NCBI GenBank assembly: GCA_951804945.1
Contig: OX638159.1
Location: 51,956,001 to 52,020,000, forward strand
Direction of reading: 5' to 3'
DNA length: 64,000 nucleotides
From: Podarcis cretensis
Taxonomy: Eukaryota
Part shown: piece by piece, positions 3,604 through 53,900 of the stretch
Layout: the number at the start of each line of letters is the position of its first letter
Position numbering within the stretch: the stretch's first letter is position 1
Notes under the pieces: model-generated
Database searches by the model: none
What the model was told of the DNA's origin: nothing
What the model saw: only the letters and a program-made list of their open reading frames with translations
Position numbers and translations under genes: made by a program

Positions 3604-4760
3604 TTTTGCACATTTTGTTATTCTGAAACAACCTGTTTTCTTCTTCTTCTAACCTCCGGGTTGTGTTTTACTGAGCAGGAGATGTTGGAAATATTAGCAC
3701 ATGTAGAGGGAAAATAATTCAAAGCCTTTATGTTTGGGGACCAATTAATTATCAAAACCTCCAGTTTTGAGAAGAAAGATATTTAATCTCCTCTAATCCC
3801 TTGTGACTCTGACCTTTGACCTCTGCATCCTGACCTCTGGGTTCGGGGCTCCCATCCCGCAGGACACGACTAAATATAGACCCATTGTTTTACAAACAAT
3901 AGTTTCATAAATCTTTGCAAGTGTAACACTGGAGCCCTTCGCCATCAGCATCATCTCCATCTTCCCCTCTGGACGCTGAATATATTTCTGTGGGCATGAG
4001 CTACGAATTCTGCTTCTTTGTCTTCTAGCAATTCTGATCTGATCTAACGCATTGTTCCTGCTACCATATTAATTACTGGGAAAGTATACATAGGGTTCTG
4101 TGTGCGAGAGAAAGAAAGAGAGTGTTTGTGTGTTGTCCTGTTTTTTTGCCTTCACACTCGCTGGAGCCAGTTCCCGCTTCTGATCTGACAGCCGAAGAGC
4201 TTGGGAGGTAATTATACAGCTCTGCACGTGCCTTGCTTGCGGCATATGACACACCACATTATTGACACCAATTTTAATTACTTCTATTTATCTCTCCCTT
4301 CTACCTAATCCAAAGTTGACATTAGTTACTTCAGCACAGGAGTTGTTGAATGGAGTGCAGTTCCCCTCAACCTACCGAGTGCCCCTTTCCCTAAATAAAC
4401 CACTGGGTTTTTTTTGAAACAAGAGGAAATCCTGTCTTCTTTTTTTGTTTTCATGGAATGATGTGAAGAAGGTAGGGTGTGCATTTATGGTAGCCACCTA
4501 GTGGAATTTATTTTCTTCTGCATGACTTCCTGAGAATAGAGCACAGATACCTTGTGTGCATATGCTAGTCTGGGAATTTGTATGTCCCAGAGCTTTGTAC
4601 AGGCTCTGGTGCATGCCTGGAATTCATCCTCATCTTGAGGAAGATGGGGCAGCTCAGTGCTGAAATCCCTCTATGATGGAGAAGTGGGAGGGATTTGTGG
4701 CTCTGAACTCCAGCTCCCATAATTCATGACGCTGGCTTGGGCTGTTGAGGATCAGATCTT

Positions 4761-6188
4761 CCAGTCTCAAATCTTCCATTCTTGGGCAAGGTGATTGAGC
4801 GAGTGGTTGCTGAACAACTCCAGGCACGCCTGGAAGAAGCGGACCATTTGGATCCCTTCCAGTCGGGATTCAGGCCTCATCATGGGACTGAAACTGCCTT
4901 GGTCGCACTGGTTGATGATCTCCGGCGGGCTAGGGACAAAGGTGAGAGCTGTTTCCTAGTTCTGCTGGATCTCTCAGCGGCGTTTGATACCATCGACCAT
5001 AACATCCTTCTGGACCGTCTTGAGGGGCTGGGAGCTGGGGGCACTGTCCTACAGTGGTTCCGCTCCTTCCTCCTGGGCCGTGTTCAGAAAGTGGTGGTGG
5101 GGGATGAGTGTTCAGACCCCTGGGCTCTCACTTGTGGGGTGCCTCAGGGTTCTGTCCTCTCCCCCATGCTTTTCAACATTTACATGCAGCCGCTGGGAGA
5201 GATCATCAGGGGGTTTGGGCTGGGTGTTCATCAGTATGCGGATGATACCCAGCTCTACCTCTCTTTCAAATCAGAACCAGTGAAGGCGGTGAAGGTCCTG
5301 TGTGAGTGTCTGGAGGCGGTTGGAGGATGGATGGCGGCTAACAGATTGAGATTGAATCCTGACAAGACAGAAGTACTGTTTCTGGGGGACAGGAGGCGGG
5401 CAGGTGTGGAGGACTCCCTGGTCCTGAATGGGGTAACCGTGCCCCTGAAGGACCAGGTGCGCAGCCTGGGAGTCATTTTGGACTCACAGCTGTCCATGGA
5501 GGCACAGGTTAAATCCGTGTCCAGGGCAGCTGTGTACCAGCTCCATCTGGTACGCAGGCTGAGACCCTATCTGCCTGTGGACTGCCTCGCCAGAGTGGTG
5601 CATGCTCTGGTTATCTCCCGCTTGGATTACTGCAATGCACTCTACGTGGGGCTACCTTTGAAGGTGACCCGGAAACTACAACTAATCCAGAACGCAGCAG
5701 CCAGACTGGTGACAGGGAGCGGCCACCGAGACCATATAACACCGGTCTTGAAAAACCTACATTGGCTCCCAGTACGTTTCCGAGCACAATTCAAAGTGTT
5801 GGTGCTGACCTTTAAAGCCCTAAACGGCCTCGGTCCAGTATACCTGAAGGAGCGTCTCCACCCCCATCGTTCTACCCGGACACTGAGGTCCAGCACCAAG
5901 GGCCTTCTGGCGGTTCCCTCACTGCGAGAAGCCAAGTTACAGGGAACCAGGCAGAGGGCCTTTTCGGTAGTGGCGCCCTCCTTGTGGAATGCCCTCCCAC
6001 CAGATGTCAAAGAGAACAACAACTACCAGACTTTTAGAAGACATCTGAAGGCAGCCCTGTTCAGGGATGCTTTTAATGTTTGATGTATCATAGTATTTTA
6101 ATATTCTTTGGAAGCCGCCCAGAGTGGCTGGGGAGGCCCAGCCAGATGGGCGGGGTATAAATAATAAATTATTATTATTATTATTATT
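4761..6188 (+). mobile_element. 5'-truncated L2-clade LINE
   Basis: Starts mid-RT (PVSNLPFLGKVIERVVA) and has an uninterrupted ORF to 6083; 3' UTR gccgcccagagtggctgggg...gggtataaataataaa followed by a (TTA)n tail. Confidence 0.92.
4782..6083 (+). CDS. L2 LINE ORF2 reverse transcriptase, C-terminal part (not a host gene)
   Basis: RT motifs QSGFR, LLDLSAAFDTIDH, GVPQGSVLSPMLFNIYM, YADD and the L2-typical SRLDYCNALY and HITPVLKNLHWLP. The start codon is an artefact of truncation. Confidence 0.9.
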   Translation: MGKVIERVVAEQLQARLEEADHLDPFQSGFRPHHGTETALVALVDDLRRARDKGESCFLVLLDLSAAFDTIDHNILLDRLEGLGAGGTVLQWFRSFLLGRVQKVVVGDECSDPWALTCGVPQGSVLSPMLFNIYMQPLGEIIRGFGLGVHQYADDTQLYLSFKSEPVKAVKVLCECLEAVGGWMAANRLRLNPDKTEVLFLGDRRRAGVEDSLVLNGVTVPLKDQVRSLGVILDSQLSMEAQVKSVSRAAVYQLHLVRRLRPYLPVDCLARVVHALVISRLDYCNALYVGLPLKVTRKLQLIQNAAARLVTGSGHRDHITPVLKNLHWLPVRFRAQFKVLVLTFKALNGLGPVYLKERLHPHRSTRTLRSSTKGLLAVPSLREAKLQGTRQRAFSVVAPSLWNALPPDVKENNNYQTFRRHLKAALFRDAFNV

Positions 6189-49391: not shown

Positions 49392-50158
49392 GACCACTGG
49401 CCAAGCTAGCTGAGAATGATGGGAGAGGTGGCCCAACAACATTTGAAAGGCACCATGTTGGCTAAACCTGATGTAGAGAGTGGACCCTGTTTTCAGCGTC
49501 CTTTAAATTTACCAGAACCAGATCCAGGATAAGACAAAACGAAGTACTTCTTCAGGTAACACATAACTTAAGGAACTGACTGCCGCAATATGTGGCAATT
49601 GGTCACTATCTCAAGAGGATAGGTCCAGCAACAGTGGTTAGCTATTCCATGTTCAGAGGTAATAACACTTCTGAGTACAAGATGAGGAGGTCTAACAATA
49701 GGGCAATACTGTCATTTTCATATCCTGCTTCTGTGTTTCACAGAACCATCTGGCGACTGCGGGAAGCAGAATGCTGAACCAGAGAGGCCTCTTAAGTATG
49801 ACCCAGCAAGCCTTTCTTAATAGTCTTATGCTAAGAGTGGTGTCCAAAAGGTAAGGAATATCTCAGGGGAGCCAAGAAGGAAAGACTGAATCAAAGTAAT
49901 TAAGTTATATATGGTTTCATTCTGACCTGAAGGCAAAATTCGTTCCTGATCACTAGTAGGAGGAATTGTTTGGAGCACAGCTTGAATCATCAACATCAAT
50001 GGCTCAATCCTGCCTTTGAATGGTTTGTTTTCTTCAAAATATTTTCAGCACTTCACCCCCAAATCCCTTCCTGAGTTGTGAGAGTCCATCAGTTTCTTTA
50101 ATGTAAACAAGACATTCCCACCTGTAATTCCTGGTTAAAAGTTATCCTGAAGTAATGT

Positions 50159-50986
50159 TGTCAGAGCTGCTCCTAGGTCCCAGCTCACAGAGGACCAACG
50201 CTAGGCTGTCGTTATGTACAAAAGTCTTTATTGAGGTTCAGTTTCCATTTCAAAGCCACAGCGCGCAGCTCTACGTCTTAAACCCTAGACCGGCGAAGTC
50301 CCGTCTGAGTCTCCTCCCCTATGACACCAGTTTAAGATCCTAGCCCTGCTCCACCTTTTACGCTGCTCTCTCCTCCTCTGGGTCCTCCTGCCCGCTGGGG
50401 CATTGCCCTTTCTGGACTCTTCCGATGCTGAGTCGCTTAGCTCCTCCCCCTCCCTCCGGCGGGCTTTAGGACCCGGTTCCCAATCCTCATTCTCTGCTGT
50501 CCCGCGCTCCTGTACATTTGAACTTGCCTCTCGTGCCAACCCAGTGACCTTCCTCCTGACCGTTACACTACTTCTGTCACTGCTTCCCTCTTCCGGGATA
50601 CTGGCCGGATCTGACCTCCCCTCCGTTGTCTGACTCTCCGATGGAGGTGTGGTCAGCCCTGCCTTATCTTCTCTCCCTGGTGGGGAATGCACTGGCCCCG
50701 ATCCTTGGGACTCTTCCCCCCCCCACTCTGCTCTGGTGGGGAAGCTGGTCCTGATTTCCAACTACTGCTCTGGGAGTCCCTGCTGCCCCCTTGCTCCTGG
50801 GGCGTTCCCCTTGGGAACCCCCTACCCCTGGCCACTGGCGCCCCCTTCTGTGAATCTTCCGATTCGCTGGAGAGGCTCATGGAATCCCTCGGTCCACTGT
50901 CCTCTTCTCCTACGCTCCCCTCGGATTCTTCCCCTTCGCTCTCCATCTCCTCTCTTCCCTGTGCCTCTGCTCCTGAGCCCCTGACA
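50159..50986 (-). mobile_element. Solo LTR (828 bp, Gypsy-like) with long U3 reading frame
   Basis: TGTCAG...CTGACA inverted termini, perfect 5-bp TSD AATGT (50154-50158 and 50987-50991), minus-strand AATAAA at 50227-50232. Confidence 0.87.
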
Positions 50987-53900
50987 AATGTTATTAGCAA
51001 TTTGTTCATGCAAGGACCACTTTCTCAAACCTTCTCTCCATGGAATCTAAAAACACGACCTCCAGAACTAGGGTTCTTTTACTTTAGGGTTAACAGAAGA
51101 ATTGAACTGGAACTCAGTCTTTGATCTTTGATCTAAATAAGATTATACTGACGACCATTGGCAGAGACAGGATACTGAGCAATATGGACCACTGATCTGA
51201 CACCATTAGGTCGTCATGCAGCTTTCACGTCAAAACATGTTTACATGCATCTTTAAAACACATTCCATGCTGCAGGACACAATTGCTTTTGTTCAGCGTG
51301 TGCCTGGCCATCTCCATACTTCGCATGATCACTAAGGCATTCCACAGATTATGTGGTTTGGGAGAAGTACGCAGAAGACAGGAAACTGCAGCCAATCATG
51401 TATTTGCTATATGTGTAGTTAATAATTTTAGAGGTACGTAAAAAACAAACAAACCCTTATGTATGAGCCAGTAACTCTGAGACTTTTTCATGTACTCAGG
51501 CATATGTCCTTCAATTCAAATTGCATGCTTATGTGAGGTATTCACATTAGAAGCCAGCATCTACCTATCCTCTAAGATAATTTTACATTTAAGATAGAAT
51601 CACAATGGCTTTACACTTTTCACAAAGATCTGCTGCAAGAGGCTTCTCCCAGTGTAAGTGAATATTATGAAAATTCAAAGTACACACCACTCCCCAAAGT
51701 GCCATTTTGCTCCTGAAGGGGAAAAAATACACATTGCTCCTACATGCATTTACTACAAGTAAATCTCTTTTATTTCAGCTGAACTTCCTTTCCCATTGTG
51801 TTTCACATTGCTGCCTCAGTATTAAGCTTTGAAAGGGTGGTAATGGTGGAAATCACATGCTTATGTTTTGAAATTAGTTTTCAACCTTCCCCACCCCCCT
51901 CAAAATGTCTCTCCATAAAAGCTAGATTCACACTAGATACATTTTTTAATGCGGACATACATCTTAATTTTATAATTTCCTAATGCTGTTATTTTGCATC
52001 AGCCACCACAAATTACTTTGTATTAAAACATAAAACTGCATGATTTGACAGCCAGCATACAAACAGAGCAGAAAGTGACCTTGAACAGCAGTGTATAAAA
52101 ATACATTTATCACTGAAATGGCATGCTGGCTGTCAGTCAATATATGCCTCTCATTTGTTCAGAGGTTCTCCTGCTGTGAGTCCCTCATTACAATTTGCTT
52201 TTACTTCCTGGGCAAATGACAAGCTGAAAATGAGGCAGCGTCTTTCTTGACCAAACTTAATCCAGAAAAAATTAGACAACAGCTGCAGCCATCCAAGTGT
52301 TACCGTGTGTTCCACAAAACGTTATCTAAAACATACTGTTTTATATACATCCTCGGTGTTACGCGATGCTAAACAGGAGAACCACCAAATGTGTCCCATA
52401 TCCTCTAAACCCATCACATTTTATTAAGTTATTTACGCTGATCTCTTAAAAAAAAAAAAAATCAATGCAGCCTATTTTTCAAGCACGCCAGACATTTACA
52501 AAGATTTGATTTACATTCGCAGTTTAAGAGGCTCACGCTTCTTTTCTGTTTCAGATATTTCAAGATGACACTGCCAAAAATTAATATGGCAGTAAAGTCA
52601 ACAGCACATTTTGAACAGTTATTCCTAATTAGGAGCACTCACCTCTAAGTGGATGTAGTTAAGGCCTGCCTCACAGATTACAGTAAGGGGCATAAAATAC
52701 TTCATTGGAACAAGGGCAGCTGATATCCCTCTATGTGTAAACATGCAGGAGTGTATGGCTGGTGCTTATAAACTGATGCAGCATCCTTTTCTGTAACATC
52801 TCTTTGCTCCCCTAAAAGGCTAGCAATGCGTAAATAAGTAGGGGGGGTGAATCTGTCAGTTTCCCTTTCTCATTTCCCCAATCATTATTTCCGTTCTCCC
52901 CATTTCTGTCTAAATTTGAGATTTCTTCTTTTTATGATGGGGGGGGGGGAACCTTCATGAAAATTCACACACACATTCATGTGTATTTCTAATATTAACC
53001 TTTCTGCATGTGATTTTTACACAGTGCGTGCATTTTTAAAAATAGTGGCCCCCCAACAAATAATATATTTCTGCAAATTATTTTTGTGAATATATACAGT
53101 TTTCTACGCACCTCTCACTAATATACACATTTTTTTGGTACATATTCTCTAGTTGGAGAACTAAACGGCAAAATTCGGAAATGTTTACATTTCAGAGAAG
53201 AGCTGTGTGTTGCCGTTCCTGTGCACATTTTGGGAGAAGCAAATCTGGAACGTTCACACAAAAATGTGAGATATATCCCCCCTCTATGCCTAATAAGTAA
53301 CCTTAATACAGAGAAAAGTAAAAAGAGATCAGTCTGCTTAAAGTAGCAGACATGGTGAGGCATAACACACAACTATTTCGTTACCAAAGAAGTAAGACTG
53401 CAGTACTAGTTCATTCCACACATTTTAAAATGAAGAAATATAATTATTATTTGCAAGCATGAGATATGAATCTACCAAGGAGTATAATTATTATTTGTAA
53501 GCATGAAACATTAATCTATCCAGGGGAAATTTTAAACTATTTATAATTGTTATATTATTGCTTAATATTAAATTTTATGAAGAATTAACAACCGGCTAAT
53601 GTGATGTTTTCCAAACTTTTTTTTTTTTTAAACAAAAAACTGTTTTGAAATATTACTCAGCAGGCACTTAAAACAGAAGCAAACAGAGAACCATGAAAAC
53701 ATGTGCACATCTTTAACTTTTTAGGAAGCGTTCTGTGCACTGCAAAATATAATACTGAGAATTGGCAAAACACCACCATCACCATTATGAATGCCCACAC
53801 AATTTACTAGCAAAATGCATCCTATTCACCTAATCAGACAGATAATGATCTTGAATTTACATGCCCTAGCTGTTGTAAATCACCAAAGACTCCTTTTTCT

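Follow-up and report, generated by a model that had tools for sequence, protein, structure and literature searches.

The U3 reading frame of a Podarcis cretensis solo LTR is the end of a Ty3/Gypsy Pol frame and probably encodes most of a predicted-disordered integrase tail

The DNA analysed here (the window) is a stretch of 64,000 nucleotides from the lizard Podarcis cretensis. On its minus strand lies a solo long terminal repeat (LTR) of a Ty3/Gypsy chromovirus-like retrotransposon, the features of which are collected in Table 1. The first-pass annotation had described this as a clean solo LTR with the target-site duplication (TSD) AATGT, and the positions it gave for the termini, the G-run, an ATG, the stop codon and the AATAAA were all confirmed in the sequence. 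The solo LTR is a young, polymorphic insertion: 833 nt, comprising the LTR and one TSD copy, are exactly missing in contigs of two of four DNA runs from one study, while one of the remaining runs contains both insertion junctions and the other contains the left junction. A first-look search of the genome with the LTR gave 3130 candidates, and the 40 that were scored were all 98–100% identical. Of the 30 best-matching copies, 21 are solo LTRs with an exact 5-bp TSD, and 24 of the 30 LTR matches in a second-subfamily set likewise have one. Elsewhere in the window a 444-codon open frame (4749–6083, plus strand) resembles a LINE reverse transcriptase and carries a YADD motif, and truncated 3′ ends of the same LINE-like element are found at ~19400 and 47360.

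Table 1. Coordinates of the solo LTR, its flanks and its internal features within the window
Feature	Position	Strand	Basis
Solo LTR, Ty3/Gypsy chromovirus-like retrotransposon, TGTCAG...CTGACA	50159..50986	-	Sequence and parent elements
LTR termini	TGTCAG 50986-50981; CTGACA 50164-50159	-	Read from sequence
TSD AATGT, one copy	50154..50158	+	Sequence; empty site in two of four DNA runs
TSD AATGT, other copy	50987..50991	+	Sequence; DNA runs
Coding region for the last ~232 Pol residues (integrase tail), broken here	50285..50985	-	Open reading frames, family comparison
Internal Met codon (ATG of the first-pass annotation)	50944..50946	-	Sequence, LTR tally
G-run (nine G) breaking the frame of the window copy	50716..50724	-	Sequence; family length variants
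Arg-rich block and conserved RWSxARILxWC motif; only predicted helix (low confidence)	50324..50392	-	Alignment, AlphaFold2
TATA-like ATCTTAAA, -32 to -25 of the putative start; overlaps Ile-Leu-Asn codons	50331..50338	-	Promoter role putative
11-nt self-primer site complementary to the PBS; U3/R border, putative transcription start 50306	50296..50306	-	Pairing
TAG stop of the U3 frame	50287-50285	-	Sequence
TTTAAGA	50282-50276	-	Sequence
AATAAA polyadenylation signal	50227..50232	-	Sequence; role putative

The window copy carries two overlapping stop-free frames on the minus strand (50653–51024 and 50285–50761), and these are indeed broken at the G-run, as had been proposed. Of the 30 best-matching natural copies, ranked by their likeness to the broken window copy, 20 have a single frame of 232 codons that opens at the LTR edge; the equivalent frame is found in 28 of 30 copies of the second subfamily, ranked by their likeness to an open copy that is itself one of the 30. 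Family copies with one open frame thus exist. Run lengths that break the frame recur, in 16 of 114 LTRs when each is compared with one open copy. The G-run variant of the window is common to five other insertions, and the six copies show 8.9 differences among themselves against 8.3 to open copies. A monophyletic lineage carrying this break is unsupported, since its carriers resemble open copies at least as closely as they resemble one another, a pattern that fits repeated slippage and not a successful truncated lineage. A Pfam search with the four frames of the window copy returned no families.

A polypurine tract (PPT) was found upstream of four LTR matches, and the neighbouring DNA gave an element of ~6.7 kb. 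The Pfam domains of this element occur in the order Retrotrans_gag/Ty3_capsid, zf-CCHC, RVP_2, RVT_1, RT_RNaseH, Integrase_H2C2 and rve, with a Tf2-type SH3 (GPY/F) domain after the integrase, and in element-linked copies a PPT precedes the 3′ LTR. No env was found among the Pfam domains or in the element DNA, where Pol reaches the 3′ LTR and leaves no room for one. The best solved-structure match of the Podarcis relative P0008 is Ty3 Gag-Pol (E=1e-132). The parent is a Ty3/Gypsy retrotransposon with a Tf1/sushi-type self-primer and not a retrovirus, and the retrovirus-like host implied by the initial comparison with nef, sag and bel2 was not found. In 28 TSD-matched elements the 5′ and 3′ LTRs are 0–2.5% apart (median 1.1%), which indicates that the family was recently active, in several subfamilies simultaneously. 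LTRs of different subfamilies (83% alike) were also seen lying head to tail, as were tandems of three LTRs (L035:2335–3987; L008/L009, L019, L059, L074 and L099); such arrangements suggest insertion beside existing copies, or recombination.

The SH3 domain is followed by a chromodomain-like segment (P0001 residues 53–99), which scores 18.8 bits against Pfam Chromo (cut-off 25.1) and aligns with Chromo-bearing Pol proteins. The chromodomain cage is made up of Y/W/Y (excerpt of PMC3605345), and by eye these three aromatics are missing from the segment, so that the methyl-lysine cage has apparently been lost. The segment is nevertheless constrained like the reverse transcriptase (dN/dS 0.07) and may have taken on a new binding role. 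A conserved block, HALFPHRPMP..F..LFTPTLS, comes after it.

One natural copy can be read with zero stops from the integrase through the chromodomain-like segment, an acidic linker (~150 aa) and the PPT (GGMD) into the U3 frame. The chromodomain frame continues in phase into the LTR in 75 of 91 element-linked 3′ LTRs (the top 30 matches, 60 taken at even steps from 98 of the remainder, and one more), a figure favoured by a protein query that spanned the linker and the LTR start in one frame and so prefers in-phase copies up to the G-run. The region beyond the G-run lies outside that query and is unaffected by this preference. The frame is open to a common stop, 125–128 nt before the LTR end, in 45 of the 91 copies and not in the other 46, and the 45 open copies span nine of ten LTR clusters, which are up to 19% divergent. 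In three copies a single open stretch of 1563 codons leads from the protease region to the common stop. Moreover, four Podarcis muralis UniRef Pol models of 1498–1506 aa have the complete tail at their end, A0A670KNJ5 and its cluster (‘Gypsy retrotransposon integrase-like protein 1’, Podarcis muralis) match with 59% identity over the last 364 aa, and a 415-aa relative protein has an identical chromodomain–linker–tail order.

The U3 frame is best read as an in-frame integrase tail that ends Pol, and not as a separate gene. The first-pass annotation had proposed an unannotated, LTR-encoded accessory protein; its coding nature stands, whereas its status as a stand-alone gene is not supported, since one uninterrupted reading frame leads from Pol across the PPT into the LTR. 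Its further thought, that in full-length elements the frame might begin upstream of the 3′ LTR, proved correct: such elements were found, and the frame starts within Pol. The Pol–tail fusion is already present in generically named, automated UniRef models, and the record shown is silent on the LTR-encoded end.

Selection was assessed from net divergence between six subfamily clusters comprising 44 copies, the two largest clusters being cut at random to 14. The dN/dS of the tail is 0.42 (0.32–0.55), with values of 0.27 for codons 1–60, 0.68 (0.39–1.11) for codons 151–200 and 0.25 for the last 34 codons; elsewhere in Pol it is 0.41 in the linker, 0.07 in RT-RH and 0.10 in IN. Four other frames give 1.17–1.55, and the codon-mirrored antisense frame gives 0.46. 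The value for the tail without CpG codons is 0.49 (range 0.34–0.71), and by mutation class it is 0.38 for non-CpG transitions and 0.37 for transversions (p=3e-9 and 5e-6, respectively, against site opportunity). The neutral baseline taken from 5′/3′ LTR pairs is itself below 1, at 0.60 crude, 0.85 for transitions and 0.60 for transversions. Between subfamilies the synonymous to nonsynonymous counts are 37:11 (CpG), 84:68 (other transitions) and 38:60 (transversions), as against 28:37, 15:27 and 11:28 in 22 TSD-matched LTR pairs. This comparison, drawn from four subfamily pairs with shared branches, gives an excess over the baseline for CpG changes (p=0.0005) and transitions (p=0.036), and none of significance for transversions (p=0.32).

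The indels are consistent with these data. Subfamily-fixed indels inside the frame have net lengths of 3 and 63 nt, whereas behind the stop three shared indels each involve one base; the nucleotide alignment splits the 63-nt deletion (29+34, 42+21) and contains offsetting 3- and 4-base gaps, and the protein alignment agrees with the net lengths. Deletions of both 63 nt and 39 nt are present in the tail. Both signs of coding that the first-pass annotation had looked to, a dN/dS below 1 and indels in multiples of three, were thus observed, and the coding constraint on the U3 frame is real but moderate.

AlphaFold2 gave no fold for the tail save one weak helix (pLDDT 51) at residues 196–216, over the Arg-rich end, and the tail is predicted to be disordered. 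Seven tails, down to 54% identity, have 37 invariant columns, which include RKV, PGPKARR, SASEESR and RWS outside the cis-signals. By analogy, the Arg-rich block with its RWSxARILxWC motif is a candidate nuclear localization signal (NLS) or targeting module. The earlier picture of a disordered product with an Arg-rich C-terminus finds support in AlphaFold2, the alignment and the dN/dS data, which place it under selection. A Pfam search with the open tail returned no families, and a search of the ESM Atlas with the C-terminal 93 aa gave no usable match and is uninformative. A profile search of 1.84 billion representatives identified only four tail relatives, two of them labelled Podarcis lilfordi; all are lizard-labelled or unlabelled records and none is plant-labelled. 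The tail looks lineage-restricted among the representatives searched.

It is unlikely that the tail is translated with Pol but functionless, as a tolerated soluble extension for which selection does no more than preserve an open frame, the few conserved residues being dictated by promoter, primer and att signals. Such an extension would be in keeping with a constraint five times weaker than that of the Pol core, with the relaxed codons 151–200 and the two deletions, with the five other insertions that have the break of the window copy, and with the overlap of the conserved ILNW and DGTS with the TATA-like box and the primer; the conservation of this most conserved end of the tail may be partly cis-regulatory. 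However, codons 1–60 and the last block show an excess of synonymous change, whereas cis-constraint would instead reduce it. Moreover, some of the invariant columns lie outside the cis-signals, and copies with the break are not mutually closer.

No tRNA primer site was found behind the 5′ LTR; the primer-binding site (PBS) there begins GTAAG and pairs with the LTR. The 11-nt stretch begins two bases past the terminal CA, its partner site lies ~148 nt from the LTR end, and in 33 of 44 elements all 11 bases pair with the element's own LTR. Compensatory changes between subfamilies are seen at position 7 (G-C/T-A/A-T), position 8 (A-T/G-C) and position 4 (C-G/T-A). In Tf1 the PBS anneals to the opening 11 bases of the RNA (excerpt of PMC7175516), and self-priming is used across the Tf1/sushi group (excerpt of PMC6317226); from the equivalent 11-nt pairing we infer an RNA start at window position 50306. 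A TTAAA core or a one-base variant of it is present in all ten LTR clusters, and a conserved TCTTAAA lies 25–31 nt upstream of the putative start. The TTTAAGA previously taken for a TATA-like box was rejected for its position, in R and 24 nt downstream of the putative start, and for its variability, as it is altered in 20 of 22 cluster 5 copies and three of three cluster 6 copies. With the U3/R border at this putative position, the frame spans U3 entirely and reaches 20 nt into R. The solo LTR in the window has this frame as a passenger, broken and upstream of the putative promoter, and Pol translation cannot reach it.

The ATG at 50946, suggested as a start codon, is not a family-wide feature. 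It is present in 81 of 89 3′ LTRs, and it is lacking from two clusters (6 and 8) and from eight relatives (P0005, P0008, P0009, P0013, P0015, P0019, P0022 and P0027); some subfamilies and Podarcis-labelled relatives have Thr, Ala, Val or Ile codons at this position. It also lies ~640 nt upstream of the putative transcription start, so that the LTR promoter should be unable to transcribe it.

HIV nef, MMTV sag and foamy virus bel2 are separate U3 genes that are expressed from spliced RNAs of env-bearing viruses. The lizard element resembles these in that coding overlaps U3, and differs in that the frame is fused to Pol and env is absent. It is very unlikely that the tail is (also) a separate accessory protein like Nef or Sag, made from a spliced or internally started RNA and beginning at the PPT Met or at the ATG discussed above. 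Immediately after the 5′ LTR, the 44 elements tallied carry a splice-donor-like GTAAG(T/C), every relative seen retains the PPT Met, and the ATG is common; but the AAG of the first motif is already accounted for by the self-primer pairing and the PPT Met by the PPT, the ATG is missing from two clusters and eight relatives, and the linker and the tail have matching dN/dS values, as expected for one polypeptide. Contigs of four runs that were guessed to be RNA cover one element piecemeal, with no joint between the 5′ LTR and the tail, which proves nothing.

That the frame arose by chance from the composition of a T-poor strand (T makes up 13% of the LTR sense strand) is hardly credible and largely refuted, for although the longest frame in 3000 dinucleotide shuffles averages 111 codons and the 158-codon piece of the window copy is reached in 7–8% of them, so that this copy alone would lack significance, 232 codons are reached in only 0.3–0.4%, the phase is the same as that of Pol, dN/dS is frame-specific, and the common stop is kept in nine of ten clusters whereas a branch of 7% evolving neutrally avoids stops in 20% of 60 simulations. 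The shuffle comparison put forward by the first-pass annotation therefore speaks for the intact frame.

Among known systems, the Tf1/sushi group (V-clade: Sushi-ichi, Amn-san) shares with the lizard element the Ty3/Gypsy order, the Tf2-type SH3 domain, a post-integrase chromodomain-like segment and the 11-nt self-primer, and the Amn-san chromovirus has been found in reptiles (excerpt of PMC4131045). However, the four relatives P0032–P0035 end 0–60 residues past the chromodomain, whereas here ~380 residues follow, 232 of them in the LTR, and the lizard chromodomain falls below the Pfam cut-off. In plant CRM group A elements the Pol frame enters the 3′ LTR, and the LTR encodes the CR targeting motif (excerpts of PMC3059260 and PMC3605345). 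The lizard element resembles these, and beet Beetle7 and Bingo1, in its Pol frame entering the 3′ LTR; unlike CRM, which has a tRNA-Met primer site and a centromeric bias, it is self-primed, keeps a chromodomain remnant upstream of the PPT and is biased towards contig ends, centromeres being unmapped here. In Ty1 integrase, disorder extends over the last 260 residues, with the NLS and the targeting domain at their end (excerpt of PMC8487063); this end serves nuclear import and targeting (PMC8487063 and PMC10050235). A long disordered C-terminal region with a basic block at its extreme end is common to both proteins; Ty1 is a Copia-type element in which the tail lies between IN and RT and is not LTR-encoded, so that the likeness is one of layout and sequence similarity is not expected. 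Our verdict is that the lizard tail probably works like an integrase tail of the CRM/Ty1 type, and that the element is neither a CRM member nor the bearer of a retroviral U3 accessory gene. In the open-access papers searched, no account was found of Pol being read on into the 3′ LTR in lizard or other vertebrate Gypsy elements, and the excerpts of PMC3601003 and PMC4131045 make no mention of Pol running into the LTR.

The genomic distribution of the family is uneven. Among the best-scoring element-linked matches listed, 61 of 127 lie within 1 Mb of a contig end, where 2.6% would be expected, as compared with four of 137 matches listed for a young Copia family that served as control; contig C5 (three element matches, four solo LTRs and 13 Copia matches) was left out of every end count. 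Copies of the element crowd at both ends of several contigs, although contig ends are not equated here with telomeres or centromeres. Segmental duplication was rejected as the cause, as the 3′ flanks of 89 LTRs are distinct bar three that run into element sequence. The end bias of element-linked copies hints at targeting. However, solo LTRs are also enriched near ends (six of 41 among the best-scoring; p=6e-4) and far less so than full elements (p=1e-4), a difference that differential retention fits as well as targeting does, and much of the bias could arise if full-length copies are retained better at ends. The Copia family is itself very young (L032:6853–9999, plus strand), with 150 RT matches listed at 97–100% identity and many frames of at least 1300 codons, and one of its copies lies beside or inside Gypsy copies on C8. 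A tandem array with a period of ~46 nt is found near the end of C9 (L038:1–7541, ~81.654–81.661 Mb), close to an element cluster, and is possibly a subtelomeric or centromeric satellite.

Taken together, we consider it probable that the window holds the solo LTR of a Ty3/Gypsy element whose U3 encodes the last ~232 residues of an integrase tail of ~380 residues, predicted to be disordered, likely with an NLS and possibly with a chromatin-targeting motif. Transcription of the genomic RNA would begin at the primer site of the 5′ LTR, leaving the 3′ copy of U3 as the only one in the RNA, and the tail would be translated as part of Gag-Pol and would stay on the integrase after processing. By analogy with the systems described above, the basic C-terminal block would import the pre-integration complex and, the chromodomain cage being apparently lost, may bias insertion to chromosome ends; of these two roles the NLS is likely and the targeting possible. 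A bolder proposal is tentative and on balance doubtful, namely that a chromovirus with a decayed chromodomain cage evolved an LTR-encoded integrase tail that targets chromosome ends, as an independent animal counterpart of the CRM targeting domain. Protein code, promoter and self-primer would, on that proposal, share the same bases.

That the U3 frame belongs to Pol means that a seemingly non-coding repeat, with its 3130 first-look candidates in the genome, holds 232 codons of protein sequence that are under selection and share bases with promoter and primer signals, a clean case for the study of overlapping constraint. It also accounts for spurious ‘hypothetical proteins’ annotated on Podarcis solo LTRs (P0007, P0014). 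Should the tail indeed steer insertion to chromosome ends, it would rank among the few targeting determinants identified in vertebrate LTR retrotransposons, convergent with those of the plant centromeric retrotransposons.
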